Below are positions 1,021-17,138 of a DNA stretch of 64,000 nt, in pieces (within the stretch, counting starts at the first letter, position 1; the number at the start of each line of letters is the position of its first letter). Made by a program: the position numbers and the translations under genes. Below the pieces are notes generated by a model. That model saw nothing but the letters and a program-made list of their open reading frames with translations, ran no database searches and was not told where the DNA came from. The stretch lies in contig CANJVU010000002.1 in the NCBI GenBank assembly GCA_947478525.1, positions 24,873 through 88,872 on the forward strand, given 5' to 3'. The stretch is from Thiotrichales bacterium (GTDB lineage: Bacteria > Pseudomonadota > Gammaproteobacteria > Francisellales > CACEW01).

Positions 1021-1066
1021 TTTTGGTATAATCGGTTCATCATCCCTAGATCATAGCTGAAGAGTC

Positions 1067-1654: not shown

Positions 1655-2283
1655 GTGACAGAGTTGGCCTCAATCACGCCAGGCTGTGATAATACAGCAG
1701 TGCGGCGCGCATGTTGGGTAAAGGCAATAAAATGATCTGCTAAGCCTGCCTGGTAGACGTGATAATCGGTCATGCCATCACCAATCATTACGCCAGCGCT
1801 TTGCCATTTTTTTGATAATGGTCTTGCGCCATCTACTTTGGAGTGGCTAAAGGGATCGTGCTGGTCAATGCCAATAAACTGGCCATGATTGCCAAAACGC
1901 AATTGCACGCCATGAATCTGTGCCGCAGCAATATTCAGTGCCAACCCAACTGGCAAAATTAACTCACGTAAACCGCCGCTGATAATCCAAATATCCATCC
2001 CTTGATCTTGCAACGTCTTGATTAGCGCCGGCATTCCTGGGGTGAGGTATTGTGTGATGGTTTTGGCCAGCTGATCGATGCTTTGCTGCGTAGGTGCAGC
2101 AATTTGCAAGCGCTGCTGCAGTGACTCGGCAAAGGAAATGGTACCGTCCATCCCTTGTTGGGTAATTTCAGCAAGCAATGCTTGTTTTTCAGGATGGTTT
2201 GCCAATGGCGGTGCCAGTAACAGCTCCAGACTTTCTGCGGTGATCAAGGTAGAGTCAAAATCGAAGATGACGGTTTTAATCAT
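1621..2283 (-). CDS. HAD-IB phosphatase, phosphoserine phosphatase (SerB)-like
   Basis: FDFDSTL motif I, ISGG motif II, IGDGMTD motif IV, and FAESLQQRL. Confidence 0.85.
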   Translation of the reverse strand: MIKTVIFDFDSTLITAESLELLLAPPLANHPEKQALLAEITQQGMDGTISFAESLQQRLQIAAPTQQSIDQLAKTITQYLTPGMPALIKTLQDQGMDIWIISGGLRELILPVGLALNIAAAQIHGVQLRFGNHGQFIGIDQHDPFSHSKVDGARPLSKKWQSAGVMIGDGMTDYHVYQAGLADHFIAFTQHARRTAVLSQPGVIEANSVTQLLAVLSALT

Positions 2284-3125
2284 GGGGTTGTGGGCTGACG
2301 ACGAATCGGGATATCTGCAATACTAACACGAAACTCCCTACCCGATGAAGTGGTCTTGGGTTTTTCAGCGCCCCAGGCGTGGCCATAAATAATTTCAAAG
2401 GGAATGGGCAGTGCGTTATCGTTTTTTTGTTTGATCAATTTTTCAAGCATTTGTTGCCAACGCTTTTTGCCGGTCAGCGTTTTGCGGCGTGTACTCAATA
2501 ATTGGGTTTCGCCCATCGCGCGCAGGTCGTCAAACAGGCGTTGCGTGGTGGAATAATTGACGGTAATGTGTTCGGCGTCCATGACGGGATCGACGAAATG
2601 GTTTCTCAATAAACCATCACCAATATCATGCATGTCATAAAACGGCAAGACGTGTTGTGCCGTATCTTCACCAAATGCCTTGGTTAAAGGTAGTAGCGTA
2701 TCGGGACCCAGTGTAGAAAACATCAATAATCCCTGTGGTTTTAACACGCGGCTGATTTCGCCGAGCACTTTTTCCAGATCCAGAGTCCAGTGTAGTGCCA
2801 GGCTGGAAATAATCAAATCGATGCTGTGGTCAGCAAAGGGGAGTTGATGGGCATCTGCGCAAACTGATGTCATGTTACGGTTATCTAATCTCGATATGGC
2901 AAGGTCTAGGCCAACATAATGCGCAGTGGGATAAAGCGGTCGCAACGCGTTAAGCAATGTGCCATCGCCGCAGCCAATATCGACAATAATCGCAGGTTGG
3001 CATTTGATAAAACTCAGGCGGTCGACCAGCCGCTCTTGTACTTCGCGGGGGATAATCGCCGCATCGGCATAGCTGCCAGCGGTTTGATTGAGCTGTCGTT
3101 TTGCTTGAGCCAAGTCTATGTTCAT
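2280..3125 (-). CDS. bioC: Malonyl-ACP O-methyltransferase BioC
   Basis: SAM motif DIGCGDG, ADAHQLPFADHSIDLI, FSTLGPDTL, DMHDIGDGL and YGHAW; ATG at 3125 chosen because the longer ORF overlaps epmA. Confidence 0.85.
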   Translation of the reverse strand: MNIDLAQAKRQLNQTAGSYADAAIIPREVQERLVDRLSFIKCQPAIIVDIGCGDGTLLNALRPLYPTAHYVGLDLAISRLDNRNMTSVCADAHQLPFADHSIDLIISSLALHWTLDLEKVLGEISRVLKPQGLLMFSTLGPDTLLPLTKAFGEDTAQHVLPFYDMHDIGDGLLRNHFVDPVMDAEHITVNYSTTQRLFDDLRAMGETQLLSTRRKTLTGKKRWQQMLEKLIKQKNDNALPIPFEIIYGHAWGAEKPKTTSSGREFRVSIADIPIRRQPTTP

Positions 3126-3154
3126 GATAGCGTAATCTAAAACCGGAGTATTGC

Positions 3155-4063
3155 ATGCTGTATAACCCATTTTCGCCAGTAGATCAACAATTACGTGCAC
3201 AGGTGCTGCAAAAAATTCGGCAGTTTTTTGCCGAGCGTGGGGTATTGGAAGTCGATACGCCTTTAATGGCTGAGGCACCGGTTACTGACCCTTATTTGCA
3301 AGCGGTGCAAGCCAAGTGCATGGGTAAAACTTATTATCTGCAAACCTCACCAGAATATGCGATGAAGCGATTGCTCGCTGCGGGCAGTGGTTCGATTTAT
3401 CAAATCTGTAAAGCGTTTCGTGATGAAGAACAGGGCAGAATCCATCGTGCTGAATTTACTATGCTGGAATGGTATCGTGTAGGGTTGGATGATTGCCAAT
3501 TGATGGATGAGACCGATGCATTAATTCAATGGGTGACCGGATGGCCGCCGGCTAACCGTTTTAGCTATCAGGCATTATTTGAGCAGTACTTGCAGATCAA
3601 TCCGCATCAAGCCAGTTTTGAAACCTTGCAAACATTGGCGCGAAAACATATGGGCGACATCCCTGGATTGGTGCACGCCACGTCCGATGATTATTTACAT
3701 TTGTTGATGTCAGCCGTCATTGAACCGGAAATAGCCAAATTAGATGTGGTGATGATTTATGATTATCCCGCCTCACAAGCAGCATTAGCGCGCAAAAAAG
3801 AAGTGAATGGCAAGCTTGTTGCCAAGCGCTTCGAAGTCTATTGTCGTGGTGTGGAATTGGCCAATGCTTATGATGAATTAACCGATGTCAACGAACAGCG
3901 GCGGCGTTTTGAAGCCGATTTATTGCGTCGCCAGCAGTTGAACTTGCCGGCAGTGCCTGTAGATGAGGCGTTGCTGACGGCCATGGCGCAAGGCTTGCCG
4001 GATTGTGCTGGGATTGCGTTGGGACTAGATCGATTATTGCTGTTTGCTCGCCAATCCCATTAG
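3155..4063 (+). CDS. epmA: EF-P beta-lysine ligase EpmA (GenX/PoxA)
   Basis: LQTSPEYAMKRLLAAG, FRDEE.G..H..EFTMLEWY, ELANAYDEL and GIALGLDRL; no anticodon domain. Confidence 0.95.
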   Translation: MLYNPFSPVDQQLRAQVLQKIRQFFAERGVLEVDTPLMAEAPVTDPYLQAVQAKCMGKTYYLQTSPEYAMKRLLAAGSGSIYQICKAFRDEEQGRIHRAEFTMLEWYRVGLDDCQLMDETDALIQWVTGWPPANRFSYQALFEQYLQINPHQASFETLQTLARKHMGDIPGLVHATSDDYLHLLMSAVIEPEIAKLDVVMIYDYPASQAALARKKEVNGKLVAKRFEVYCRGVELANAYDELTDVNEQRRRFEADLLRRQQLNLPAVPVDEALLTAMAQGLPDCAGIALGLDRLLLFARQSH

Positions 4064-4894
4064 TTCGCCCATCTGGATCGCACGATTGGGTACAATGCCT
4101 GGCGCCCATTGCATGGCATCTTTGCCAAATAACACAATCACCGTTGAACCAAATTGAAAACGGCCAATTTCATCGCCGGTTTTATAAACATGATGGGCAT
4201 TTTGATAATCCCAGTGATAGGGTTTTTTATGGTGTGAAGGTGCTACCAAGCCATGCCATACTGTTTCCATGCTGGCGACAAAAAAAGCACCGACAAATAC
4301 TACGGCCATTGGGCCCATGTCGGTTTCAAATAAGCAGACCACGCGTTCATTACGTGCAAATAATTTGGGCACGGTTTCTGCCGTGCGTGGGTTGACCGAG
4401 AATAATTTTCCTGGCACATAGGTCATGCCAATGAGTTTGCCAGTGTAGGGCATATGCACACGATGGTAATCACGCGGAGATAAATATACCGTAATAAATT
4501 GACCATGATCAAAATGGTGATGCCAGTTAGTGGCGCCACCCAATAATTCTAGTGCGTTGAAACTATGGCCTTTGGCTTGGAAAATCCGGCCTTTTTGGAT
4601 TGGACCACATTGGCTGATGGCACCATCGGCGGGGCTGACAATCGCGTTTGATTGCGAGGGGAGGGGGCGCGCACCGGCTTTTAAGGCGCGAGTAAAAAAT
4701 GCATTGAAATGAATATAGGCATCTGGGTTGGATTCGATTGCCTCAGAAACATCAATATGGTATTTCTGAATGGCCAGGTTAATCAGTGCATTTTTGATGC
4801 CGCGCACTTGGCAGTTGGCCAATTTACCGAGTAATCTAGACAATAAATGTTGCGGTAACAGATATTGAGGTAGAGTCAGTAATCGATTGAGCAT
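4034..4894 (-). CDS. psd: Phosphatidylserine decarboxylase proenzyme
   Basis: SPADG, YLSPRDYHRVHMP, LFARNERV and the FGST cleavage motif. Confidence 0.95.
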   Translation of the reverse strand: MLNRLLTLPQYLLPQHLLSRLLGKLANCQVRGIKNALINLAIQKYHIDVSEAIESNPDAYIHFNAFFTRALKAGARPLPSQSNAIVSPADGAISQCGPIQKGRIFQAKGHSFNALELLGGATNWHHHFDHGQFITVYLSPRDYHRVHMPYTGKLIGMTYVPGKLFSVNPRTAETVPKLFARNERVVCLFETDMGPMAVVFVGAFFVASMETVWHGLVAPSHHKKPYHWDYQNAHHVYKTGDEIGRFQFGSTVIVLFGKDAMQWAPGIVPNRAIQMGELMGLASKQQ

Positions 4895-6032: not shown

Positions 6033-8006
6033 ATGTCGCACCATTTATGGAGCGTGGCGCTTTTTGTGGCGCTGTCGCCGGTTATTTTTGCGGATAACAC
6101 CCGTTATCCCATCCCTGATATTTTTATCCCTGCCCCGTTGCCCATGTATGGTCAAAGCAGCGATAATCTGGGCAATCAAATTGTCTTATCTGCGGCTGAG
6201 ATTCAGCGAGAAGGTGTTACCTCATTGGCGGAACTGCTCGATCATGTTGCAGGCATGCGCTATGACTCGGGTGCGGGTGCCAATCCACAGTTATTTTTGC
6301 GCGGTAAACCCGCCTTAATCTTAATCAATGGTGTGCCCTTAACCACGTTTTCACAAGCGGCGCCTGATTTGAATGTGATTGATTTGCAGCAGGTGCAAAA
6401 AATTATCATCACGCCCGGTTCTGCCGGCGTTGCCTATGGCGATGCGGCGATTGGAGGCGTAGTTAATGTTATTACCACCGCGCCGACGTCGGCGCAGGCC
6501 AATGTCAATCTGTGGGGCGGTTGGCCGCAACAGGGTGGTGTGGATATTCAAGCTGCTAATGCTTTAGCCAATGGCTGGTCAGGCGATTTGGGTGGCGATA
6601 TCGACAAAACTGGTGGTTATCGTCAACACAGCAAATCGATCGAACAAAAGCTCAATGGTATGCTGCGTAAAGATTATGATAGGGGCTATGTGGAATGGCG
6701 TTGGCAGGGTAACCATCAGAACTTGGATTATCCGGGTGCATTAACCGCAGCGCAAATGGCGCAAGATCGTACGCAAAGCATTGCCAGTGGTCAGGGTTCC
6801 TTTCGTTATAATAGCATCGACAATGTGGTGCATTGGCACCAGGCGTTGGAACAGAATTGGATCTCAGATACCGTATTGCATCACAATCAACTATGGGGTG
6901 CGGCAGAATATTATCCTTTTGTATCTACTAGCAGTGAATTGGCGCGCACCATATCGATTGATCAATCATTTCAGCATCAAAATAATTGGTTCCACTTGCC
7001 GGTGAAATGGACCTTGGGGGTGAACACCACTCTTGATGATTATAGCTACACCGAGTCGATCAACTATGGTACCCGCCAGCAATATGCAGCGTATGCGTTA
7101 AGTGATTGGCAATTGCCGGATCAATGGGGTGTTGCCGTCGGAGGGCGTTATGTCTGGCTCGATACCAATGGCCAGTTTTATGAATACAACGGCGCCATGA
7201 CGGTGTTGCAACCACCGCAAACGCAAGTTCAATCCTTGTGGCTGAGTAGCATCGAGTTATATCGCACCTGGGGGGAAGATCTCAAAACCTACCTTCGTCG
7301 TGCACAAAGTTATCAATTGCCGCTGATTGACCAGTCGAGTTATTCACCCAATACTGCGCAATTTTTAACGGGATTTGGTTTGCAACCGCAAACCGCGACG
7401 TCTTATGAAACTGGTTTTACTTGGAGCCCCGCGCAGTGGCAGTGGAACGGTGAGCTGTACCTGATGAATGTGCGCAATGAAATTGGTTATGCAGTGGATC
7501 CCACTGTGCCGGGCAACCCGAGTGTCAATTTCAATTTGCCGCCGACGCGGCATATTGGCGCTTTATTGGGAACCCAATATTCGCCCACGCAGCGTTGGCA
7601 GATCGGTGGGCAGTTAAATGCCTCGCGGCAGTGGTTTACCCAAGGTGACAACGGCGGTAAGCAATTGCCCGATGCGCCGGAATGGATTGCCTCGATGAAC
7701 AGCCGTTACCAATTTGCCGAACATTGGTCGATGTATGGCTTGGCGCAATATACCGGCAGTAGTTTTGCCGACGGCGATTTCAGCAACAGTCTGGGCAAAA
7801 TCCCCGGGTATTGGTTGTTTAACACCGCGCTGAATTATCAAATCCAAGCGTGGACGCTCAGTGCGCGTATTGATAATTTGACCAATACCTATTACAACCT
7901 TTATACCACCACTGTTCCTACTGGATCGGGCAGTAATGAAATTGATTATTACCCGGCACCTGGGCGGACGTTTTTGTTGAGTGTGAATTACCATTTAGAA
8001 AATTAA
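6033..8006 (+). CDS. TonB-dependent receptor, probably BtuB-like cobalamin transporter
   Basis: Signal peptide, plug motifs (LILINGVP, YGDAAIGGVVNVIT), C-terminal IDNLTNTYY...PGRTF..SVNY; B12 riboswitch upstream. Confidence 0.9.
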   Translation: MSHHLWSVALFVALSPVIFADNTRYPIPDIFIPAPLPMYGQSSDNLGNQIVLSAAEIQREGVTSLAELLDHVAGMRYDSGAGANPQLFLRGKPALILINGVPLTTFSQAAPDLNVIDLQQVQKIIITPGSAGVAYGDAAIGGVVNVITTAPTSAQANVNLWGGWPQQGGVDIQAANALANGWSGDLGGDIDKTGGYRQHSKSIEQKLNGMLRKDYDRGYVEWRWQGNHQNLDYPGALTAAQMAQDRTQSIASGQGSFRYNSIDNVVHWHQALEQNWISDTVLHHNQLWGAAEYYPFVSTSSELARTISIDQSFQHQNNWFHLPVKWTLGVNTTLDDYSYTESINYGTRQQYAAYALSDWQLPDQWGVAVGGRYVWLDTNGQFYEYNGAMTVLQPPQTQVQSLWLSSIELYRTWGEDLKTYLRRAQSYQLPLIDQSSYSPNTAQFLTGFGLQPQTATSYETGFTWSPAQWQWNGELYLMNVRNEIGYAVDPTVPGNPSVNFNLPPTRHIGALLGTQYSPTQRWQIGGQLNASRQWFTQGDNGGKQLPDAPEWIASMNSRYQFAEHWSMYGLAQYTGSSFADGDFSNSLGKIPGYWLFNTALNYQIQAWTLSARIDNLTNTYYNLYTTTVPTGSGSNEIDYYPAPGRTFLLSVNYHLEN

Positions 8007-8020
8007 GTAATGGGTGAAAA

Positions 8021-8043
8021 AAGTATAAACATAGTATATACTT
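8021..8043 (+). promoter_or_regulatory. Palindromic operator for mazEF autoregulation
   Basis: AAGTATA-N9-TATACTT inverted repeat just upstream of mazE. Confidence 0.55.
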
Positions 8044-8071
8044 GGCAAAACAAACAGAGGAACAGAGTGTG

Positions 8072-8338
8072 ATGCAAGTGCATGCCAAAATTCAAAAATG
8101 GGGCAATGGCCTGGGATTGCGGGTATCGGGTATGATGCGCGATATTCCAAACTTTACTGAAGGTGCTGAGGTGGATGTTGATATCACTGAATTTGGACTC
8201 ACCATTCGTAAATCACAGCCTAAAAAACAAGTAGCGTTATGTTACACGGAGGCACAGTTGTTAGCAGGATTGACTGCTGAAATGGCGCATGCGGATTTAC
8301 TGGCAAAACCCTTGCGTGGTGAAATGGGAGCGGTATGA
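8072..8338 (+). CDS. mazE: AbrB/MazE-family antitoxin
   Basis: KIQKWGNGLGLRV motif; stop overlaps the toxin start (ATGA). Confidence 0.9.
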   Translation: MQVHAKIQKWGNGLGLRVSGMMRDIPNFTEGAEVDVDITEFGLTIRKSQPKKQVALCYTEAQLLAGLTAEMAHADLLAKPLRGEMGAV

Positions 8339-8679
8339 AACATTATATTCCCGAACGCAATGATATCGTATGGCTTGATTTTGAGCCCACCAAAGGTAAG
8401 GAAATTGGTAAATATCGTCCAGCCTTAGTGCTGTCGTCGCGTGGGTATAATGAAAAAACGGGATTGCTGATCTGTTGTCCCATTAGCACCAGTGTTCGCG
8501 GTGGTCTTACCGAAGTTCCGGTTAATAATCTGGATCAACCATCGGTGGTTGCAGCGAGTTTGATTCAAACCCTTTCCTGGGTCGACCGTAAAGTAAAATT
8601 TATTGCTCATGCTCAATCTGGCGTAATGCAGGAAGTGTTGATGCGCATTGTTCCTCTTATTGGTGCGGATATTTTATAA
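8335..8679 (+). CDS. mazF: MazF/PemK endoribonuclease toxin
   Basis: YIPERNDIVWLDFEPTKGKEIGKYRPALVLS..YN.KTGL..CCPIST. Confidence 0.92.
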   Translation: MKHYIPERNDIVWLDFEPTKGKEIGKYRPALVLSSRGYNEKTGLLICCPISTSVRGGLTEVPVNNLDQPSVVAASLIQTLSWVDRKVKFIAHAQSGVMQEVLMRIVPLIGADIL

Positions 8680-8805
8680 AAAATATAATACCAATTGCAC
8701 AGTATGACTGAAAACCTTAGTAAGCCTAAAAGAAGCATTCAGCAATTAGCGCGAGAAAAAACGAAAAAACACTTGGATTGATGGTAATCTTATTGTAAGA
8801 AGATA

Positions 8806-8840
8806 TTTGCAAAGTGTAAGTTGAATTGACAGTTTACAAA
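8806..8840 (+). promoter_or_regulatory. Imperfect palindrome upstream of NadM-Nudix (possible NrtR-type operator)
   Basis: TTTGCAAAGTGT-N11-ACAGTTTACAAA with 10 of 12 arm positions matching; contains GT-N7-AC. Confidence 0.3.
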
Positions 8841-8861
8841 CAGGATTAAAAGGTGGGTGTT

Positions 8862-9923
8862 ATGAAATATCACAAAGGCCTATTTATCGGCCGCTTCCAA
8901 CCGATTCATCACGGTCATGTCCATGTGATCAAAGCCGGGTTGGCACAATGCGAGCAGTTAATTTTATTGATTGGTTCGATTCGTCGTGCGCCGTCGGTGA
9001 AAAACCCGTTCAGTTATGAGCAGCGCGTAGCAATGATCCGCGAGGTGTTGGCGGAACATGATCAATTACACGGTACCGATTTGAGTAATCGCGTGATTTA
9101 CCGTGGCATTGAAGATCAAATGTATGATGATGCACAATGGTTTAGCGACATCCACCAGATCGTGCGTGAAGCCAGTCAAGCCAATGATCGCATTGCGGTG
9201 GTGGGGCATGATAAAGATGCCTCGACTTGGTATCTGTCGCGTTTTGAGCATTGGGATTTATTGCACGTTGAGAATTATCAGGCACTCAACGCTACACCCA
9301 TCCGTCATGCCTATTTTGCCGGGCAACTGGCAACGGTTGGCAATCAATTGTCAGCGGCCTGTTTCGCCTGGTTAACACAGTTTGCGCAAACGCCCGAATA
9401 TCAACGCCTGTGTGATGAGTATCAGATGATTCAACGCTTTAAAGACGAATGGTCGCATACGCCATATCCCTCGATTTTTGTCACCACCGATTCGGTTGTC
9501 ACCTGCCAAAATCACCTGTTACTGATTCGTCGGGGACGCAATCCAGGCAAAGGTTTGTGGGCATTGCCCGGTGGGTTTTTGGAGGCGGGAGAGTTGATCG
9601 AAAGCGGTCTGTTGCGCGAATTGCGCGAAGAAACGTCGATTGGCTTGTCTGATGAAACCTTGCGCTTAGCATTGAAAAAAATCAGGCCGTTTGATCACCC
9701 TGGTCGTGCGCAGTTGGGGCGGATTATTACCCACGCTGGCTGGTTTGAGTTGCCGGGAGAATTTCCCGAAGTTAAAGCGGCCGATGATGCGGCGGAGATT
9801 CAGTGGTATCCGTTGTGTGATCTTGGTCGAATTCAAGATCAACTGCATGATGACCACTACCATATTGTGAAGCATTATTTGACTGAAAATGTTAAAATGC
9901 TTTCAAACAGAGTCAATGTGTAA
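8862..9923 (+). CDS. nadM: Bifunctional NMN adenylyltransferase / ADP-ribose pyrophosphatase (NadM-Nudix)
   Basis: IGRFQPIHHGH, KNPFSYEQR, ATPIR, Nudix box LPGGF...LRELREET and AADDA. Confidence 0.93.
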   Translation: MKYHKGLFIGRFQPIHHGHVHVIKAGLAQCEQLILLIGSIRRAPSVKNPFSYEQRVAMIREVLAEHDQLHGTDLSNRVIYRGIEDQMYDDAQWFSDIHQIVREASQANDRIAVVGHDKDASTWYLSRFEHWDLLHVENYQALNATPIRHAYFAGQLATVGNQLSAACFAWLTQFAQTPEYQRLCDEYQMIQRFKDEWSHTPYPSIFVTTDSVVTCQNHLLLIRRGRNPGKGLWALPGGFLEAGELIESGLLRELREETSIGLSDETLRLALKKIRPFDHPGRAQLGRIITHAGWFELPGEFPEVKAADDAAEIQWYPLCDLGRIQDQLHDDHYHIVKHYLTENVKMLSNRVNV

Positions 9924-9927
9924 TGTT

Positions 9928-11187
9928 ATGAAAATTAATTACGCGGTTATCGTTGATGGTTATTCCAGTGGCGGTGAATTTGCACAGCAGCTTAAACAAG
10001 AGGGCATTGCCTGTATACATATTCAAAGTAACCTTGAGATACCACCGGTTTATAAAAGCACCTTTAAGCCAGAAGATTACGTGTTACGGCTGATTTATAA
10101 TTCTGCTGAAGGAATAGAGTGTTTAATGCATCAGTTGATGCCTTATCAACCTCTGTTTATTATTCCTGGTGCTGAACCTGGCATTGAGCTTGCGGATACG
10201 TTAAGTTATCGCTTTAATCTCGATTGCAATGAATATGCGCTGAGTCCAGCGCGTCGTGATAAGTATCTGATGCAGCAGCGAATAGCGGCCTTTGGGTTGG
10301 CTGCTATTCCACAGATTAAATCATCGAATTTAGCCGTGCTAAAGGAATGGGCGGTGCAACAATGCCGATGGCCATTGGTGGTAAAGCCTTTGAACAGTGC
10401 AGGAGGAGATGGCGTTGCCATATGCTATAACCTCACGGAACTGGCTGCTGCGTATTCTGCCATCATGTCGGAAGCAGTAAACATGTTATTGTTGCCCAAC
10501 ACCGAAGTGTTATTGCAACACTATATTGCGGGTGAAGAGTTTGTGGTGAATACTGTCAGTAAAAACGGTCGACATGTGTTGTGTGAGATCTGGAAATACA
10601 AACGATTTAAAAGTGCAACGGGCTATATTTATGATTCTGCTTCGCTATGTGAATATTGTCCTGAACAGCGCCAGAGCCTGATAACCTATGCATACCAAGT
10701 TGCGGATAGCTTGGGTATAAGATTTGGTGCTATGCATGCTGAAATTATCCTGAATGAGGGTAATCCTATTCTGGTGGAGGCCGCGGCCAGAGTGATGGGA
10801 GGTAACTTACCGATGGTATTGTTATCTGGCTGTTTAAAGGGGCGCAATCAGTCCACCATGAATTTATTGAGTTATGCACAACCGGAAAAATTTGACGCTC
10901 TGGCAAGTCAACCTTATCAATTGGCTAAGCACATGACGGCAGTTTTCTTGGTTGCGCATCAATCTGGCATTTTAAACTCCATTAATTATTTGCTAGAAAT
11001 TAAAGCACTACCGTCTTTTCAGGGCATCAAGTTACGGATAAAGCCAGGTGATGCAGTGGTTGCAACCGTTAATTATGAAACCAGTCCAGGTATGTTGTAT
11101 TTGGCGCATGAAAATGCTGACGTATTGGAGCGCGATATAAAAATAATTCGTGAATATGAAAAAAATGGCATGTATCAGCTACAATGA
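9928..11187 (+). CDS. ATP-grasp amino-acid ligase, DdaF/NikS-like
   Basis: IVDGYSSG, ARRDKYLMQ, WPLVVKPLNSAGGDGV, GEEFVVN, GAMHAE, EAAARVMGG and TSPG. Confidence 0.88.
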   Translation: MKINYAVIVDGYSSGGEFAQQLKQEGIACIHIQSNLEIPPVYKSTFKPEDYVLRLIYNSAEGIECLMHQLMPYQPLFIIPGAEPGIELADTLSYRFNLDCNEYALSPARRDKYLMQQRIAAFGLAAIPQIKSSNLAVLKEWAVQQCRWPLVVKPLNSAGGDGVAICYNLTELAAAYSAIMSEAVNMLLLPNTEVLLQHYIAGEEFVVNTVSKNGRHVLCEIWKYKRFKSATGYIYDSASLCEYCPEQRQSLITYAYQVADSLGIRFGAMHAEIILNEGNPILVEAAARVMGGNLPMVLLSGCLKGRNQSTMNLLSYAQPEKFDALASQPYQLAKHMTAVFLVAHQSGILNSINYLLEIKALPSFQGIKLRIKPGDAVVATVNYETSPGMLYLAHENADVLERDIKIIREYEKNGMYQLQ

Positions 11188-11219
11188 GGCTAATCAATAC
11201 AAAAAAACGGTGGTGACCA

Positions 11220-12329
11220 ATGGCGATTGTTGGATTATTTCGATCAACCAAGGAAGATGAACGGCGCATTCCGCTGCATCCAGAGCATTTGCTCGCGCTT
11301 GAGCCAGGCATCAGAAGCACCTTATATTTTGAGGCCGGGTATGGTCAAGACTTTCAAATAGCGGATGAATTTTTTATCAAACATTCCGCTGGAGTTGTGC
11401 CACGTGCTCAATTGTTGGCGATGTCTGACTTGGCGATTATCTTGAAGCCTACCCCGCGTGACTTGCTTGCCATGAGACCTTATGCCAGCTTATGCGGGTG
11501 GGTGCACTGTGTGCAACAAGTGGCAATGACACAGGTGGCTATTGATCAAAAGCTTTCGCTTATTGCCCTGGACCGAATGCATTATTGGGTGGGGGATACC
11601 CATACGCATGTATTTTATAAAAACAACGAAATTGCTGGTGAAATGGGGGTTTACGAGGCGCTGCGGTTGTGCGGTTTTTTACCTAATTATGGCAGCCCAA
11701 TGAGTGCTGCGGTGATTTCTTTTGGGGCAGTAGGGCGCGGTGCTGTCTATGCATTGAAGCGTCTCGGTGTGCATGACATTACGGTATATTCGCGGCGAGA
11801 AGCAGGACACATTGCTGATCAGCAACCCGGGGTAGCGTATTATCAAATTGCTAAGACTGCTCAGGGTGAAGTTCAGGTGGTGGGTGATGATTTGTTGTTT
11901 GAACACCTCAAGCAGAAAGACGTCATCGTAAATGCCATTGCACAGGATACCGATGCACCGTGGATGTTTATGTATAACCAACAGATCAACCAGCTCAAAG
12001 CCAGTAGTATGATTGTGGACATCAGTTGTGATGAGGGACTTGGGTTTGAGTTTGCACAGCCCACTTCATTTAAAGCGCCTATTTGTAAGGTGGGCAATGC
12101 TTTCTATTATTCCGTAGATCATATCCCCAGCTGCGTGTGGAAGAGTGCATCATATGAAGTTTCTAAAGCGCTGTTACCGTTTTTAAAAATATTGTTGGCG
12201 GGCGAGTCAGCATGGATAGAAAATAATACCATCCATAATGCTATTGATTTATCTCATGGCATAGTTGTTAACCCTGCTATCTTAGCTTATCAAAAACGCA
12301 GCAGCCAATATCCTCATGAGATTTCTTAA
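11220..12329 (+). CDS. N5-(carboxyethyl)ornithine synthase-family (AlaDH/PNT superfamily) reductive condensation enzyme
   Basis: ERRIPLHP, FEAGYG, GWVH, FYKNNEIAG, Rossmann SFGAVGRGA, IVDISCD, PTSFKAP and YYSVDHIPS. Confidence 0.85.
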   Translation: MAIVGLFRSTKEDERRIPLHPEHLLALEPGIRSTLYFEAGYGQDFQIADEFFIKHSAGVVPRAQLLAMSDLAIILKPTPRDLLAMRPYASLCGWVHCVQQVAMTQVAIDQKLSLIALDRMHYWVGDTHTHVFYKNNEIAGEMGVYEALRLCGFLPNYGSPMSAAVISFGAVGRGAVYALKRLGVHDITVYSRREAGHIADQQPGVAYYQIAKTAQGEVQVVGDDLLFEHLKQKDVIVNAIAQDTDAPWMFMYNQQINQLKASSMIVDISCDEGLGFEFAQPTSFKAPICKVGNAFYYSVDHIPSCVWKSASYEVSKALLPFLKILLAGESAWIENNTIHNAIDLSHGIVVNPAILAYQKRSSQYPHEIS

Positions 12330-13744
12330 TATTTTGCAAGGAACGTCCATTTTTTTGAGCTGAGAAACAGCACAATAGAGACTATGATGGGTAAAATGCC
12401 AAAGATCAAAAACATCGTACTATAGTGAGCATTCGATGTGATGGCTGAGGTGCTGGTTGAGTTGCGCGTGAGGCTTGCAGAAAAGAAACTGGCAATGCTG
12501 CCAGAAACCCCGAGGATCATGATCCAAAATCCCATCATAAAAGATTGATGCTTTTTCTCGATGAGCTGGCCCACAATAGACCAGCCAATGGGGCCAATGA
12601 ATAATTCTCCAATCGATTGAAAAATATAGCTTGAAATGATCCACCAGACATTAGACATCCCACTGATATTAGCAAAATGAATGCCAATGGGCAGAATAAT
12701 AAACCCAAGACCCATCATAAACAATGACAGACTAAATTTTGCAAAAATAGAAATTTGGATTCCTTTTTTTGCCAATATGGCAAAGCCATAAGCAAGCAAA
12801 GGGCTGCCAATAACAATCAAAAAGGTATTAATATTTTGCAGCCATTGTGGTGCAATATAAAACCCGAATAAATCTTTTGCAACGTTGTTTTGCACAAATA
12901 CCATCAGCCCCATCGGTGCCATCAAGTAGACTGACCAAAATACGGTGCCCATCAATACCATTAAGAGGAAAATAAGCGTGTTATGACGAGTAATGACATT
13001 CGGCTTTTTCACCGTAACCCAAACGGTGCCGCAGAACAGCAATAACCACAGCACAATGACCCCCAGATTAATGGTGTGTGCATACAGTAGCAGTAATCGA
13101 ATAATGGGAATGGCAATGATCAACAGGCAGGTGCCTAAGATAAAATGAGTATGTTGCGTATCGCCTTGCGCCAGTTTTTTCCAGTACACCAGAGTGACCA
13201 GTAAAGCCAGGATGCTCAGAATGGCCGTAATTAAAAAAACGTCGGCGTAATGATGAATGATGCCAAAATAGCCCGCTAAGGTATATCCTGCAAAATAGCC
13301 AACATTCATGCCAGAGTAACTGTACAGGAATATTTTTTCTCGACTCATTTTCTCTTGAAAACAGTTGGTGATCAACATGTTTAAGCTCATCGATGCAGTA
13401 ATACAACCGGCAAGGAAGAATGAAAGCGCCCAGTAAAAATAAACGGGTCCTGCAAAAAATAGCAGGCCAGAAATGGCTTGTAGTAAGATACCAAAGCACA
13501 GCGATAAGCGGTGGTTTAACAAGGTTCCACTGATTAGTCCACCAAGACAGGGCAATCCATAATTTAATGCTAGAAACCCACCCGTCACAAAAATAGCGGT
13601 ATCGTTGGAGATTTTAAGCTCGCTAACCATGTATAGCAGTAATGATGAATAGAGTACTGCAAAAGCAACAGATTCCAATACCCTCATCAGAAAGAAAATA
13701 ACGGTTAATTGCAACGTTGAGTTAGCGTGGTGTTGCGTTGTCAT
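12326..13744 (-). CDS. POT/PTR family proton-dependent oligopeptide transporter
   Basis: About 14 hydrophobic segments; FLYSYSGMNVGYF, WLQNINTFLI...P, KFSLSL and GELFIGPIG. Confidence 0.85.
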   Translation of the reverse strand: MTTQHHANSTLQLTVIFFLMRVLESVAFAVLYSSLLLYMVSELKISNDTAIFVTGGFLALNYGLPCLGGLISGTLLNHRLSLCFGILLQAISGLLFFAGPVYFYWALSFFLAGCITASMSLNMLITNCFQEKMSREKIFLYSYSGMNVGYFAGYTLAGYFGIIHHYADVFLITAILSILALLVTLVYWKKLAQGDTQHTHFILGTCLLIIAIPIIRLLLLYAHTINLGVIVLWLLLFCGTVWVTVKKPNVITRHNTLIFLLMVLMGTVFWSVYLMAPMGLMVFVQNNVAKDLFGFYIAPQWLQNINTFLIVIGSPLLAYGFAILAKKGIQISIFAKFSLSLFMMGLGFIILPIGIHFANISGMSNVWWIISSYIFQSIGELFIGPIGWSIVGQLIEKKHQSFMMGFWIMILGVSGSIASFFSASLTRNSTSTSAITSNAHYSTMFLIFGILPIIVSIVLFLSSKKWTFLAKY

Positions 13745-15080
13745 CTGGCTTCTTATCGCTTAGTTTTATGCAGCCGCGTACAAAGGTGCTGTGATCGGGA
13801 AAGGCTAACTGTTTGTCAGCAAATCGAGTGTCTTCAATTGGGATCATCGAAGCATCTTTAATCGGGTGATGAATTTCTGAGGGGGCATGGTGATAGTAGT
13901 CAAAACACAGAGAGGTGGCAATGTGATACAGTGAAGTAGATTGCGCAAGGCTATTTTTTTGAATACCATCCAGGTATTTATTTACCACGGTGGTTAAGTC
14001 ATCCAATGCGACAATAATGGTTTTAGCGTTTTTCAGGAAATACGGATCATTTTGCACCAGTGTGGGGTGGCTTAATGAGTAATAAACCGGTGCTTGATTC
14101 GCTTTAAACAATGCGGGTTCCATAATGATAGGAGTGGTGTTGATTTCGTAAGTCTCAAGATACGCTTTTTGAATCAAGTCTACTGGAGCGGATTCATTGT
14201 TTTGAGCAGGTCTATAACCCGGAAATGCACCTTCTGCAATGGCAAATAAATGCTTCGCTGTATCGAGAATATAAGCAGAAGATTTAATGTTTCGGCTTTG
14301 TTCAATGATATTAAAGGTAATTTCCCAACTTAAAATGTTACGCCAAAACTCGTAGGATAAACGGTTTTTGCGCAGCATGTAGGTGTATAACTTCAGCCAT
14401 GCCGGATCATTCAGTTGTTCAAACCAGTTATTTGAAAAAAATAAAAATTCAGAACGCCACTCGGCCTTGGTTTGCTTGGCAAGTTCCTTGAAGATAGGAA
14501 AATGATCTTCATAGCCATTGGGTTTTTCAACGCCCAGGCGATAGGCTTTTTTTAATTTAGTATGGCTGGCGTTATGCCCAATTTTTGGCAACATAAACAA
14601 AGAACGTGCACCTGAGGTCATGCGCCACATAAAGAGCGATGATCGGGGTGATTCTACATTGGCGTCTATTTTATCTAAGATCCGGTTGAAGCCAAAGGTA
14701 TCGCCAGGTGCAACCATAGAATAAGGTAGGATACGGTTTTCTATTTGCAGATAAAATTCAGAGCTCTTTTGTAGGACAATTCCCACTGGGTTACTGTTGT
14801 AGGGATTATAATTTAGCTGTTTGGCTAACGCTTTCGGTAGTGCTGGGTCATTAAAAGAGATTCCTTCGCCATTCGCAAGTGGCAGCAGAGATTCGGTTTC
14901 GCTGATGACTTCCATGCCGTAAGGATATTTGGCTTTATAAAGTGTAAATTGATCGCCTGGTGATAATTCGTCGATAATATTCACAAGCTCTTGATTAAGG
15001 GGGGCGATAAGTGTTCTCGCTTGTGCCCAGGTTAATTCTTCGATGTCGATTATTTTGCCATCTGTTGTGCTAAAGCTCAT
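13722..15080 (-). CDS. Uncharacterised 452-aa soluble protein with a possible degenerate cNMP-binding-like segment
   Basis: Long ORF overlapping the POT start; the segment GIVLQKSSEFY...YSMVAPGDTFG resembles a CRP-type beta-roll. Confidence 0.7.
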   Translation of the reverse strand: MSFSTTDGKIIDIEELTWAQARTLIAPLNQELVNIIDELSPGDQFTLYKAKYPYGMEVISETESLLPLANGEGISFNDPALPKALAKQLNYNPYNSNPVGIVLQKSSEFYLQIENRILPYSMVAPGDTFGFNRILDKIDANVESPRSSLFMWRMTSGARSLFMLPKIGHNASHTKLKKAYRLGVEKPNGYEDHFPIFKELAKQTKAEWRSEFLFFSNNWFEQLNDPAWLKLYTYMLRKNRLSYEFWRNILSWEITFNIIEQSRNIKSSAYILDTAKHLFAIAEGAFPGYRPAQNNESAPVDLIQKAYLETYEINTTPIIMEPALFKANQAPVYYSLSHPTLVQNDPYFLKNAKTIIVALDDLTTVVNKYLDGIQKNSLAQSTSLYHIATSLCFDYYHHAPSEIHHPIKDASMIPIEDTRFADKQLAFPDHSTFVRGCIKLSDKKPDDNATPR

Positions 15081-15086
15081 AACGGA

Positions 15087-15371
15087 TTATCTCTTTTCAT
15101 TGTAGAGTGAATGTTTCGCCAATGATGAATGATGAATCAACCAATACGCTACTAACACTAAAATCCCGCCCAGCAAGGTGGCCAGTGTCCACGCAAAACC
15201 AGGGATAAATTGGATCGGTAGGTAGTTGCGGTGGCGCTCACCGACATCGCGGGCGACACCCGCCGCGAAAATAATGTGTAAAATCACCGTGGCCAGCATG
15301 ATCAAGGCTTGAAAACTCATGATGGTTTGAGAATATTGGGACAACAACTCATCGAGCATGAATGTATTCAT
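15087..15371 (-). CDS. Small two-helix membrane protein
   Basis: Two hydrophobic stretches; co-oriented with the asnS run. Confidence 0.7.
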   Translation of the reverse strand: MNTFMLDELLSQYSQTIMSFQALIMLATVILHIIFAAGVARDVGERHRNYLPIQFIPGFAWTLATLLGGILVLVAYWLIHHSSLAKHSLYNEKR

Positions 15372-15441
15372 AGATACGAGTAATGGATTGCAGCATATGT
15401 TCTAAATAATCCTGTAAGCGAATGGTATCTTTTTTGCTCAT
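15349..15441 (-). pseudogene. Truncated HepT/DUF86 (HEPN) toxin remnant
   Basis: ATGA-coupled to the MNT gene; reads MSKKDTIRLQDYLEHMLQSITRIYEYIHAR*, the typical DUF86 N-terminus, and stops before the RX4H motif. Confidence 0.8.
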
Positions 15442-15734
15442 ACATTTATTGCCTCTGCGAGCACTTGCAGGCGAAAACGTTCTGGTAATGCTTTAGGGGT
15501 TAGTACATCAACCGTAATCCCTAATAATTTTTGTAAGTGATTTTGGATGCGTCCGATATCCAGTAGGGTTGTTTTTGGAGTAAGATCAATCAATAAATCA
15601 AGGTCGCTGGTATCGGTATCATCGCCGTGAATCACGGAACCAAAAACACGAGGATTGCTGCCATGGTTTTGTGCAACAATCTGCCGAATCATAACTCGGT
15701 TTTTTTGAAGTGCTTCAGAGGGTTTCATGAGCAT
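15438..15734 (-). CDS. Minimal nucleotidyltransferase (MntA-type antitoxin)
   Basis: RVFGSVIHGDDTDTSDLDLLI (GS-X10-DXD) and VDVLT; 98 aa. Confidence 0.9.
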   Translation of the reverse strand: MLMKPSEALQKNRVMIRQIVAQNHGSNPRVFGSVIHGDDTDTSDLDLLIDLTPKTTLLDIGRIQNHLQKLLGITVDVLTPKALPERFRLQVLAEAINV

Positions 15735-15740
15735 ACTCCT

Positions 15741-17138
15741 TTAAAAGCTCGCATTGCCCGGTGTTCTGGGGAATGGGTTGATGTCACGGATATTGTTCAC
15801 GCCCGTCAAATAGCCGACCAGTCGTTCAAAGCCTAACCCAAAGCCCGCATGCGGTACGCTGCCATAACGGCGTAGGTCGCGGTACCAGTGGTAATCTTCC
15901 ACTTTCATGCCACACTCGACAATGCGGCGATCGAGCACATCCAGGCGTTCTTCACGCTGGCTGCCGCCGATAATTTCGCCAATGCCAGGCACCAGTACAT
16001 CCATTGCCGCAACGGTTTTATTGTCGTCGTTTAGGCGCATGTAGAACGCTTTGATTTCTTTGGGGTAGTTCATCAAAATAATGGGGCCTTTTATGTGTTG
16101 TTCACACAGGTAACGCTCGTGTTCGGACTGTAAATCTAAGCCCCATTTAACTGGGTATTCAAATTTGTGTTTACTGGCCAATAAAATCTCGATGGCTTCA
16201 GAATATTCCATGCGCGTGAAAGGAGTGTTGAGTACTTGTTGTAAGCGCTCGAGGCAGGTTTTGTCGACCCATTCGTTAAAGAATTTCAGGTCGTCTTCCC
16301 GTTCGGAAAACACGGTTTTAATGACGTGTTTTAATAAATCTTCCGCCAGTTGCGCATCCTCTTTTAAATTGGCAAACGCGACTTCGGGTTCTAGCATCCA
16401 GAATTCAGCCAAATGGCGGCTGGTGTTGGAGTTCTCGGCGCGAAAGGTGGGGCCAAACGTATAAACTTTGGATAATCCCAAGGCATAAGTTTCTGCATTT
16501 AGCTGGCCAGAAACAGTGAGATAGGCTTCGCGACCAAAGAAATCTTGGCTGAAATCGACTTTGCCTTCTTTGGTTTTGGGTAGGTTCATTAAGTCCAGGG
16601 TTGAGACACGGAACAATTCTCCTGCGCCTTCGCAGTCGCTGGCGGTAATGATCGGCGTATTAACCCAAAAAAAACCTTGTTGATGGAAAAAATCATGAAT
16701 CGCATGTGCCACGCAATGGCGCATGCGTGACACCGCGCCCATCAAGTTTGTGCGCACGCGTAGGTGTGCATATTCACGCAAATGCTCGACGGTATGGCGT
16801 TTCGGCGACATTGGATAAGTTTCTGGGTCTTCAATCCAACCGAATACATTAATGTCGGTAGCTTGAATTTCTACCGATTGACCTTGGCCTTGTGAGGCGA
16901 TTAATTTCCCGGTCACTGCGATGGAGCAGTCTTTGGTAAGTTTTAATACTTCGCTGTCATAATTCGCCAACGTGCTCGGTACCACCGCTTGAATGGTTGC
17001 CATGCAGGAACCGTCAGAAATGGCGACAAACGAAATGCCGGCTTTGGAATCGCGGCGGGTGCGCACCCAGCCTTTGACCGTTACGGTTTGGTTAATGAGT
17101 GTGGCATCGGTTAACAGGGTATGAATACTGAAAGACAT
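15741..17138 (-). CDS. asnS: Asparagine--tRNA ligase
   Basis: [47 protein letters not shown] and [12 protein letters not shown]. Confidence 0.98.

Follow-up and report, generated by a model that had tools for sequence, protein, structure and literature searches.

An ATP-grasp ligase, an alanine dehydrogenase-superfamily enzyme and a divergent POT permease form a mobile three-gene cassette, a candidate for opine-type dipeptide chemistry

The window analysed in this study is a 64,000-nucleotide stretch of DNA from an uncultured freshwater bacterium. ORF calls on the window confirmed, at the same coordinates, the four genes at 9928-15080 that an earlier sequence-only reading had proposed as an opine-dipeptide pathway. 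These genes and their neighbors are as follows:

8042..8679, + strand: mazE-like and mazF toxin-antitoxin pair (PemK_toxin 1e-21), context only
8853..9923, + strand: NadM-Nudix, bifunctional NMN adenylyltransferase/Nudix (PRK05379 models, 324 bits), context only
9928..11187, + strand: ATP-grasp protein of L-amino-acid-ligase type, 419 aa (ATP-grasp_4, PRK07206), cassette gene 1
11220..12329, + strand: AlaDH/PNT-superfamily NAD(P)-dependent dehydrogenase, 369 aa (AlaDh_PNT_N/_C), cassette gene 2
12326..13744, - strand: divergent POT-family (MFS) permease, 472 aa (PTR2, MFS_1), cassette gene 3, convergent
13722..15080, - strand: protein of a large undescribed family, 452 aa (no Pfam or NCBIfam match), directly upstream of the POT gene
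15087-15371, - strand: 94-aa hydrophobic ORF (no family match), context only
15438-15734, - strand: MNT-type nucleotidyltransferase (Polbeta 1e-8; MntA 36 bits), context only

The two gene pairs converge as that reading had described, with the + strand TAA (12327-12329) and the - strand TAA (12328-12326) sharing a TTAA at 12326-12329, and the 13722-15080 gene overlaps the start of the POT gene by 23 nt. The family calls also held, since ATP-grasp_4, AlaDh_PNT_N/_C and PTR2 were all matched and the fourth protein matched nothing. Because the NadM-Nudix gene stops only 4 nt before the ligase ATG, co-transcription of these two genes is possible. The NadM-Nudix gene (324 bits, under the PRK05379 cut-off of 409) was found in all 20 scored relatives, and the cassette was absent behind it in the 19 loci examined. 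The region had been placed between mazEF and a decayed MNT-HEPN module. MazF (8335-8679, overlapped by 4 nt by a 98-aa ORF on its 5' side that has no family match) and an MNT protein (36 bits against the MntA model, cut-off 60) are indeed present, but the NadM-Nudix gene intervenes and no HEPN remnant was detected near the MNT gene, the neighboring 94-aa ORF having no family match at E<=0.01. Neither the MNT protein nor this hydrophobic ORF was in any other fetched locus. The AT-richness noted by eye stands in part: the cassette region is mildly AT-rich (GC 0.426 versus 0.48-0.49 in flanking genes) but is no GC outlier, lying at the 13th percentile of same-size genome windows (mean 0.450, sd 0.025). 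Several contigs of an independent DNA run covered 30 of 30 267-base bins in 8000-16000 with zero differences from the window, and one of these contigs bridged the NadM, ATP-grasp and AlaDH-like genes. Contigs from one metatranscriptome library matched the NadM, ligase, dehydrogenase and unknown genes, at least 99% in nine of the ten contigs, and none fell on the POT gene. These contigs carry neither strand nor transcript proof and give a weak hint of expression.

The ligase matched ATP-grasp_4 in Pfam (4e-14), LAL_C2 weakly, and NCBIfam PRK07206 at 361.6 bits, above the cut-off of 302. Residues 2-414 align to PDB chain 30vh_A, 'L-amino acid ligase' (E 7e-66), and fold and subfamily are common to the L-amino acid ligases DdaF, BacD, TabS and RizA/RhiM. 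Positions invariant in an alignment of 19 sequences of the ligase clade include K153, E204, H270, E272, E284, R288 and N293, among which presumably lie ATP- or Mg-binding residues; to our knowledge, no member of this clade has a known product, substrate or activity. DdaF was the second-best NCBIfam model, yet the kinship to DdaF that had been suggested does not extend to orthology (225 bits against an equivalog cut-off of 840). The partner genes of the dapdiamide system are also different. In that pathway diaminopropionate is made by SbnA/SbnB-type enzymes, whereas the window ligase is paired with an AlaDH-superfamily enzyme.

The dehydrogenase matched AlaDh_PNT_C (7e-15) and AlaDh_PNT_N (7e-9). 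It is not an ordinary alanine dehydrogenase (59.5 bits for the alaDH equivalog TIGR00518, cut-off 391.85), and no saccharopine dehydrogenase was among its 16 PDB sequence matches; the sequence-only reading had named these two identities as fatal to its proposal. R16, K76, H96 and D271 occupy the catalytic positions of M. tuberculosis AlaDH and do not vary within a family of ~375-aa proteins; as read from this alignment, the catalytic Arg/Lys/His/Asp set of the AlaDH/PNT superfamily is intact. The NAD-specifying Asp is replaced by Ser-Arg-Arg. Assignment to a CEOS family is weakened, as for the ~375-aa family 'CEOS' is only a database label: sources call homologues with 45-54% identity either CEOS or alanine dehydrogenase, and homologues at 38-48% are labelled N5-(carboxyethyl)ornithine synthase. 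N5-(L-1-carboxyethyl)-L-ornithine synthase (EC 1.5.1.24) is an enzyme of Lactococcus lactis that has the superfamily and the Arg/Lys/His/Asp set in common with the window dehydrogenase. However, Lactobacillales CEOS-type proteins (312-314 aa, one so named in RefSeq) are 23-25% identical to the window protein, form a very long separate branch in a quick tree, and do not have the signature H-C-V-Q-Q / S-C-D / D-H of the ~375-aa family. We know of no assayed member of the latter family, nor of any product, substrate or activity for it. In the quick tree the window dehydrogenase and its best match (P0002) nest in the broad family and the dehydrogenases of metagenome loci L122-L124 form a separate long-branch clade. 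Because these do not group with the window's enzyme, the dehydrogenase partner may have been replaced, or the tree may be distorted. Across 80 genome loci the broad family showed no conserved neighbors: the largest shared neighbor group held 7 of 80, and the neighbors included no POT protein, no unknown-family protein and one weak ATP-grasp match. One family member lies within a polysaccharide gene cluster on an E. coli plasmid.

The permease matched PTR2 (3e-16; 59.7 bits, cut-off 27) and MFS_1 (1e-13), and its best NCBIfam models were DtpA and DtpB, with 130 bits against 728 for the DtpA equivalog. It belongs to the same PTR2/POT family as DtpA/DtpB and PepT, but the TM1 motif ExxERFxYY is missing from the permeases of the window, L123/124 and L192, where Arg stands for the first Glu. 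Three canonical POT paralogues in the window's genome retain the motif. The cassette permease is a dedicated, non-canonical POT without the canonical proton-coupling motif. POT/MFS carriers are abundant in the genome and the order (G000, 2.1 Mb, has 11 PTR2 and 58 MFS_1 matches), and single genomes of relatives have as many as 18 PTR2 matches.

A scan of metagenomes with a ligase-clade profile returned 77 loci. The seven full-length ligase genes at 42% identity or above are all in L118-L124, and six of the seven have an AlaDH-like gene next, on the same strand and within about 60 nt; the L118 contig stops 62 nt past the ligase. More generally, an AlaDH-like gene comes next in each ligase relative at 42-54% identity whose sequence runs on. 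A convergent POT gene is also found in L122, L123/L124 (whose ligase proteins are identical and were counted as one lineage) and the decayed locus L192. The remaining 69 loci, with ligases at most 39% identical or fragmentary, had no AlaDH-like, POT or unknown-family match. In a class-level sample of 400 genomes, 14 matched the ligase profile at a threshold of 1e-70, and scores above 600 bits occurred only in the window's genome and G088. This distant genome of the same class carries two copies of a 5.5-kb block, 82.7% identical to each other and each with ligase, dehydrogenase and convergent POT genes, with an integrase and a group II intron reverse transcriptase nearby, and the 10 other loci of the sample had no dehydrogenase or convergent POT with the ligase. 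The POT genes linked to the cassette in L122, L123/124, L192 and both G088 copies encode orthologues 33-40% identical to the window permease. The best ligase match (P0222) and the best dehydrogenase match (P0002), both 54% identical, each lie on a single 4173-base contig, which is likely one shared contig. The genes flanking the cassette vary by contig (AcrB/CsrA, response regulator, GATase/PfkB, HTH plus ankyrin), and among the 59 relatives scored within the family or order, none had ligase and dehydrogenase side by side. The layout of ligase, dehydrogenase and POT recurs in about five other metagenome lineages. These three genes are a real recurring and horizontally mobile unit, and the cassette is rare and mobile, not part of the core genome. 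The sequence-only reading had staked its pathway on the genes co-occurring elsewhere; they do, with the same layout for three of them, although the fourth gene is not constant, and so the pathway idea survives.

The opine-dipeptide interpretation is partly supported by these data. In the reading preferred here, which is tentative and a shade short of an even chance, the mobile three-gene cassette makes an opine-type amino acid, ligates it through an amide bond and transports it. The dehydrogenase would join a 2-keto acid to an amino group by reductive condensation, giving a secondary-amine (opine-type, N-carboxyalkyl) amino acid, the ligase would use ATP to form an amide bond between this and a second amino acid, and the permease would move the product out, or precursor or product in, across the inner membrane. 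Which substrates are used, which enzyme acts first, what is made and which way the permease works are inferred. The cassette probably produces or acts on a modified dipeptide of an unusual kind, for which the sequence-only reading had offered metal chelation or peptidase inhibition as conjectural roles. A literature search found no paper that pairs the ligase and dehydrogenase of the cassette. Staphylopine and pseudopaline systems (CntKLM) use nicotianamine-synthase-like and octopine-dehydrogenase-family enzymes with an exporter and an importer. Such opine metallophore systems are like the proposed cassette in their small gene set, N-carboxyalkyl amino-acid product and own transporter, but their enzyme families were matched by none of the four window proteins, and they have no ATP-grasp step whereas the cassette does. 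POT carriers generally import, and this habit accords with uptake no less than with export.

The same enzymes could act in the opposite order, although this is unlikely. Ligation would come first, and the dehydrogenase would then oxidise the dipeptide amine or condense it with a keto acid, so that the product would be a cyclic imine, a keto-dipeptide or an N-carboxyalkyl dipeptide. This is the logic of PylC/PylD, in which an ATP-grasp amide ligase is followed by an NAD-dependent dehydrogenase that acts on the amino group of an amino-acid conjugate. The cassette has the same pairing, its gene pair is compatible with either reaction order, and the ligase gene precedes the dehydrogenase in every instance. 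However, the ligase scored 14.9 bits against the PylC model (cut-off 248.3), PylD was not among the dehydrogenase's model matches at E<=0.01, and the dehydrogenase keeps the Arg and Lys that bind the keto-acid carboxylate in AlaDH, which suits a free keto acid. Pyrrolysine biosynthesis also has a PylB-type radical SAM gene, and there is none in the cassette. Still less probable is a nutritional module, in which the POT would import host or prey peptides or opine-like compounds, an oxidative dehydrogenase would free an amino acid and a keto acid, and the ligase would store or trap the amino acid as a dipeptide. The wealth of POT/MFS carriers in the genome and order is in keeping with this, as is the general knowledge that POTs are usually importers and that AlaDH/PNT-superfamily reactions are reversible. 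An ATP-consuming ligase has no obvious catabolic place in such a module, though, and the cassette is rare, mobile and outside the core genome, with a POT that lacks the ExxERFxYY of the canonical importers in the same genome. It is very unlikely that the product is a decoration, with the opine-type amino acid attached through an amide bond to a macromolecule or a component of the cell envelope and no free dipeptide formed. The dehydrogenase-family member in the E. coli plasmid polysaccharide cluster points this way, and PMC10609480 describes carboxyethyl-lysine amides of uronic acids in O-antigens, with N-epsilon-(1-carboxyethyl)lysine amide-linked to galacturonic acid in Providencia O14, a carboxyethyl amino acid in an amide bond like that of the proposed cassette product. 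The plasmid gene and the Providencia amide are also an independent lead that favors the opine chemistry of the preferred reading. Opine-amidated polysaccharides have a sugar context, whereas no glycosyltransferase or polysaccharide gene is beside any cassette copy examined, PRK07206 and the PDB match mark the ligase as one of L-amino-acid-ligase type, and the constant third partner is a peptide-type permease.

The protein encoded at 13722-15080 belongs to a family with 12 copies in the window's genome, presence in 38 of 61 related genomes, and 1670 cluster representatives at E<=1e-3. Its AF2 model (pLDDT 94.8) has a cyclic-nucleotide-binding-like barrel followed by a C-terminal domain without a structural match. 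All 50 best VIA-align matches were CNB-domain proteins (best Z 11.1, rmsd 2.5, 126 residues), and the C-terminal 208 residues, although modelled well on their own (pLDDT 91.1), reached only VIA Z 4.4 and Foldseek E 0.54 at best. In the alignment a conserved G-A-R-S appears to occupy the phosphate-binding-cassette position of CNB (CAP/CRP effector) domains. However, PF00027 matched 1 of 82 family members (E 0.096), which gives no sequence membership, and the protein differs from CAP/CRP proteins by large insertions, with no winged helix detected in it. Of the 82 members, 81 retain H397 and D417, and 76 retain C437. Because of its conserved Glu/Arg/Ser/Tyr/His/Asp/Cys set and neutral charge, the protein looks more like an enzyme than like a DNA-binding regulator, and it may process the cassette's small molecule. 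It is probably not the case, though far from fanciful, that the gene is unrelated to the ligase and dehydrogenase and is present because its family adjoins POT/MFS genes here: 6 of the 12 copies in the genome adjoin a POT or MFS gene, and the cassettes of G088 (two copies), L192 and L122 are without it. On the other hand, in L123/L124 the gene for the closest relative with readable context (51% identical) immediately precedes the ligase gene and shares its strand, a homologue of the fourth protein (P0123, 56% identical) and one of the ligase (P0237) are each on a single 8365-base contig, and of 20 family members in four other genera only one adjoins a POT gene, so POT adjacency is no general family habit. 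The gene is beside the cassette only in the window and one other lineage, and is a lineage-specific add-on, dispensable to the cassette elsewhere. There, the slot upstream of the POT gene holds genes for an HTH protein and an ankyrin-repeat protein.

The four genes of the cassette region proposed by the sequence-only reading were all found intact, and the convergent stops do overlap, with a TTAA common to both at 12326-12329. The features are as follows.

9928-11187, plus strand: ATP-grasp ligase (ATP-grasp_4, 4e-14; PRK07206, 361.6 bits)
11220-12329, plus strand: AlaDH/PNT-superfamily dehydrogenase (both AlaDH/PNT Pfam domains)
12326-13744, minus strand: POT/MFS permease (PTR2, 3e-16)
13722-15080, minus strand: fourth gene (no Pfam or NCBIfam model matches)

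The ligase gene starts 4 nt behind a NadM-Nudix gene, and the start of the POT gene overlaps the fourth gene by 23 nt. Positions 8000-16000 were wholly covered by several contigs of an independent DNA run, with zero differences from the window. Scans of the same 8 kb for promoters (22 sites vs 17.6 expected) and terminators (10 vs 7.6 expected) stayed at chance level. In one metatranscriptome library, contigs matched NadM, the ligase, the dehydrogenase and the fourth gene at 99% or more (9 of 10 contigs), though such contigs give neither strand nor transcript; none fell on the POT gene, which says nothing on its expression.

The main finding of this analysis is that the ligase, dehydrogenase and POT genes recur together in one layout. 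This was not apparent among the 59 genomes scored within the window's family and order, where the dehydrogenase was matched in nine (0/17 in the window's own family, 8/25 in a single genus from the sister family) and the ligase in 15, and the two stood side by side in none. The best 80 genome loci of the dehydrogenase family likewise held no POT match, no fourth-protein match and one weak ATP-grasp match, and the family has no conserved neighbour, the largest neighbour group being present at 7 of the 80 loci. Run with the ligase protein alone, a metagenome scan returned 200 pattern matches, none confirmed as a relative, and a scan with a profile of the ligase clade returned 77 loci. These contained seven full-length ligase genes of at least 42% identity, all in metagenome loci L118-L124. 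An AlaDH-like gene directly follows the ligase on the same strand in six of the seven, and the seventh contig stops 62 nt past the ligase. In L122 and in L123/L124 a convergent POT gene comes next, as in the window. L123 and L124 have identical ligases and were counted once, whereas L119, L120 and L121 differ by 37-43% pairwise. A further metagenome locus, L192, carries a decayed cassette (900-4400) in which a ligase fragment (residues 5-110) is fused to or abuts a dehydrogenase fragment (residues 239-364), with POT, ankyrin-repeat and HTH/S24 genes intact beside the remnant. The other 69 of the 77 loci had none of the three partners (AlaDH-like, POT, fourth-protein family), and ligase relatives there adjoin aldehyde dehydrogenase and methyltransferase genes.

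In a class-level sample, 14 of 400 genomes matched the ligase profile at 1e-70, and only the window's genome and G088, a distant genome of the same class, exceeded 600 bits. G088 carries the ligase, the dehydrogenase and the convergent POT gene twice (L250 and L251), in a 5.5-kb block with 82.7% nucleotide identity between the copies. The block has five genes, with ankyrin-repeat and HTH_3 proteins added upstream of the POT gene, and the order HTH, ankyrin, POT is common to this block and L192. Both copies lie near a group II intron reverse transcriptase gene, identical in the two, and one lies near a phage-type integrase; beyond the three genes, the flanks vary from case to case. At 10 other loci of the class-level sample the partners were absent. 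Among database proteins, the best matches of the ligase (P0222) and of the dehydrogenase (P0002) are both 54% identical to the window's proteins and each is on one contig of 4173 bases, so the two are probably neighbours. The sequence-only reading had treated all four genes as one set. This holds for three of them, which recur in L122, in L123/L124 and twice in G088, and in decayed form in L192; the fourth is missing from G088, L192 and L122. We conclude that the ligase, dehydrogenase and permease genes form a conserved, mobile cassette, and for these three genes the finding is firmer than the earlier reading could know. The cassette is rare among the sampled genomes (2/400 in the class, counting that of the window). 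A LuxR-type response regulator was also seen near each of the two G088 copies.

The ligase belongs to the ATP-grasp superfamily, as seen from the ATP-grasp_4 match (4e-14) and the conserved residues. Over residues 5-418 it passes the cut-off of 302 bits for NCBIfam PRK07206, an L-amino acid ligase subfamily, and PDB 30vh_A, named 'L-amino acid ligase', aligns to residues 2-414 (E 7e-66). The id 30vh appears in the accessible text of no relevant paper, and the RhiM/RhiC paper gives other ids. The second-best model was DdaF (dapdiamide A synthase, NF041595), and orthology to it was rejected at 225.3 bits vs a cut-off of 840. The pyrrolysine pair PylC/PylD was not matched either: the ligase scores 14.9 bits vs the PylC cut-off of 248.3, and PylD gave no match at E<=0.01 in NCBIfam. 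Eighteen database relatives, 41-54% identical to the ligase, form a clade, beyond which identity is at most 38%. In a 19-sequence alignment of the clade, K153, E204, H270, E272, E284, R288 and N293 are invariant, and the Lys, Glu, Arg and Asn residues among them are putative functional positions of the ATP-grasp domain.

The dehydrogenase is a member of the AlaDH/PNT superfamily (PF05222, 36.6 bits; PF01262, 55.4 bits). An ordinary alanine dehydrogenase was considered, as homologues are named either 'alanine dehydrogenase' or 'N(5)-(carboxyethyl)ornithine synthase' in the databases, and was rejected because the protein scores 59.5 bits vs the cut-off of 391.85 of the equivalog model TIGR00518. 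Its active site is intact at the level of alignment: R16, K76, H96 and D271 pair with active-site residues of M. tuberculosis alanine dehydrogenase and are invariant in the alignment of the dehydrogenase family. They are also kept in P0002, in L119-L122 and in the Lactobacillales proteins; L123 and L124 have Arg at position 76. Ser-Arg-Arg stands where NAD-specific enzymes carry Asp, a hint that the enzyme may use NADP(H).

The earlier placement of this protein in the CEOS family was weakened. The comparators were two Lactobacillales plasmid proteins, of which the Vagococcus one is named CEOS in RefSeq, and identity was 22.9% to the Vagococcus protein (314 aa) and 24.8% to that of E. gilvus (312 aa), so orthology to the Lactobacillales type was not supported. 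This short type of 312-314 aa, which we take to be the one studied in Lactococcus, forms a separate long branch in a quick tree. Because of the 23-25% identity and the separate long branch, the CEOS label serves as a lead to opine-type chemistry and does not establish that the protein is a member. That tree places the window's dehydrogenase and P0002 inside a broad family of proteins of about 375 aa, and the cassette-linked dehydrogenases of L122-L124 form a long branch of their own, which may reflect either fast evolution or an exchanged cassette partner. One genome scan for the dehydrogenase family confirmed 595 of 600 candidate stretches from hundreds of species, a family for which the cassette could give a first function. 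In one sister genus, five of seven homologues (L014-L018, in genomes G053, G050, G028, G027 and G041) have other residues in place of three catalytic ones (A or T for K76, N for H96, N for D271) but retain Arg16 and the glycines that bind the nucleotide, so these may be pseudo-enzymes or have an altered function.

A different kind of pointer comes from an E. coli plasmid (L195; NZ_AP027746.1, 171106-172221), where a 38%-identical relative of the dehydrogenase lies inside a polysaccharide gene cluster, with a flippase gene on one side and on the other an unannotated 322-aa ORF that has no Pfam match. Known decorations of O-antigens include carboxyethyl-lysine joined to galacturonic acid by an amide bond, as described in the accessible text of PMC10609480. 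The plasmid gene may take part in decorating a glycan with a carboxyethyl amino acid, and together with the known decoration it may be read as a hint, independent of the cassette, of N-carboxyalkyl chemistry.

The permease belongs to the POT/PTR2 family (PF00854, 59.7 bits vs a gathering threshold of 27) and is not a DtpA equivalog (130 bits vs 728). The motif ExxERFxYY couples POT transport to protons. This TM1 motif (E-x-x-E-R-F-x-Y-Y) is absent in the cassette-linked POT proteins of the window, L123/L124 and L192, where Arg replaces the first Glu, and is kept by three POT paralogues of the window's genome. The cassette permease offers a natural case of a POT carrier without the proton-coupling motif. 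The transporter load of this genome is very high for 2.1 Mb (58 MFS_1 and 11 PTR2 matches), and genomes of the sister family have up to 18 PTR2 matches each.

For the cassette, the analysis demonstrates family assignments at superfamily level, intact active-site residues, repeated occurrence in a single layout, and mobility. The best-supported route has three steps, for which the substrates, step order, product and transport direction are what we infer. The dehydrogenase would join a keto acid and an amine into a secondary-amine amino acid, the ligase would couple this to another amino acid, and the permease would move the product or a precursor. The roles as metal chelator or zinc-peptidase inhibitor that the sequence-only reading had suggested for the product are speculative. 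Several dipeptide antibiotics are made by NRPS-independent L-amino acid ligases, such as bacilysin, dapdiamide, tabtoxin and rhizocticin. We know of none of those pathways in which an AlaDH-superfamily 'opine' dehydrogenase and a POT carrier accompany the ligase, and no paper pairing the two enzymes was found in the main text of the open full-text literature. The system also differs from the opine metallophore (Cnt) systems, as their nicotianamine-synthase-like and octopine-dehydrogenase families are absent among the Pfam and NCBIfam matches of the four proteins. The cassette appears to be a new version of the known ligase-based dipeptide pathways, with a predicted product. As it is small (3.8 kb, three genes), mobile and conserved, it offers a directly testable route to a new metabolite.

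The surroundings of the cassette agree in part with the earlier description of an AT-rich region between mazEF and a decayed MNT-HEPN module. The GC content is 0.426 vs 0.48-0.49 for the flanking genes; however, this falls no lower than the 13th percentile among windows of equal size across the 2.12-Mb genome, so the region is mildly AT-rich. MazF was confirmed and the MNT gene is present, but no HEPN remnant was detected with Pfam or NCBIfam. Among the loci of 19 relatives, two (G006 and G012) have nadM immediately after a TonB-dependent receptor gene, and the mazEF pair (8042-8679) therefore looks like an insertion between these two genes in the window's genome. Downstream of nadM, nothing in the 19 relatives' loci matches the window's genes. 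At the other end, the gene for the MNT-type nucleotidyltransferase, which has no detectable HEPN partner, is followed by a hydrophobic ORF of 94 aa (both within 15087-15734), and the two are packed on the minus strand between asnS and the fourth gene with gaps of 6-66 nt. Both are absent from all other fetched loci.

The tie of the fourth protein to the cassette is partial. A relative of 51% identity, the closest among loci with readable context, lies directly upstream of the ligase in L123/L124, and a 56%-identical homologue (P0123) and a ligase homologue (P0237) are each on one 8365-base contig. The family has 12 copies in the window's genome and is present in 38 of 61 related genomes. Six of the 12 copies are next to a POT/MFS gene, vs about 0.65 expected from 58 MFS matches if about 2000 genes are assumed. 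A general rule that the family sits by transporters was rejected, as in four other genera just 1 of 20 copies adjoins such a gene. In those genera 6 of 20 copies are followed by a convergent SAM-dependent methyltransferase gene of about 235 aa, as are 2 of 12 in the window's genome (L220, L221, L225, L232 and L235; C1:53648-54412 and C25:34743-35462 in the window's genome), and an AdoHcy-hydrolase-like NAD protein lies beside 2 of the 20. The methyltransferase shows a weak likeness to N-terminal Xaa-Pro-Lys methyltransferases.

The family is unnamed in every source searched, and 1670 cluster representatives match its profile at E<=1e-3 (931 at <=1e-30), with sizes of about 430-470 aa in all 150 matches listed. 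Pfam gave nothing consistent over 82 members, and the cyclic-nucleotide-binding model PF00027 matched 0 of 82 at E<=0.01 and one at E 0.096. An AlphaFold model from these 82 sequences is confident (pLDDT 94.8, pTM 0.93), and its first ~250 residues resemble cyclic-nucleotide-binding domains, which make up all of the top 50 VIA-align rows (best Z 11.1, rmsd 2.5, 126 residues). In the model this likeness is at fold level only. A Foldseek search with the whole model returned only weak CRP-type rows (TM by query about 0.22). The C-terminal 208 residues, modelled alone at pLDDT 91.1, gave no structural match (best VIA Z 4.4; none at E<=0.001 in Foldseek, where the best E was 0.54) and no clear match to a wHTH of the CRP/FNR type; both domains are near neutral, with a median pI of about 7.7-7.9. 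Residues E108, R159, S160, Y311, Y333, Y334, S335, H397 and D417 each occur in 77-82 of the 82 members, and C437 occurs in 76. We read the protein as a putative enzyme whose barrel would bind a ligand, and less probably as a regulator that binds DNA. The ESM Atlas gave no usable lead for this protein (best feature score 0.80, best TM 0.25). With this gene comes a family of about 1670 sequence clusters, for which the model is confident and half of the protein has no structural match.

A wider proposal, possible but rather unlikely in our judgement, is that the cassette makes a new class of small opine-containing dipeptide, which host-associated or predatory freshwater bacteria would direct at a partner cell or employ to capture metal, and which would be exported by a POT-derived carrier without proton-coupled import. 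The companion protein would then be a new enzyme family, with a cyclic-nucleotide-binding-type barrel, a new fold and a His-Asp-Cys active site, that tailors or hydrolyses such peptides. Separately, two copies of the fourth family in the window's genome lie near Hcp (type VI secretion) genes, and one copy is two genes from a TIR-domain protein (C3:445-1014, C4:35131-35616; C4:40972-41676).
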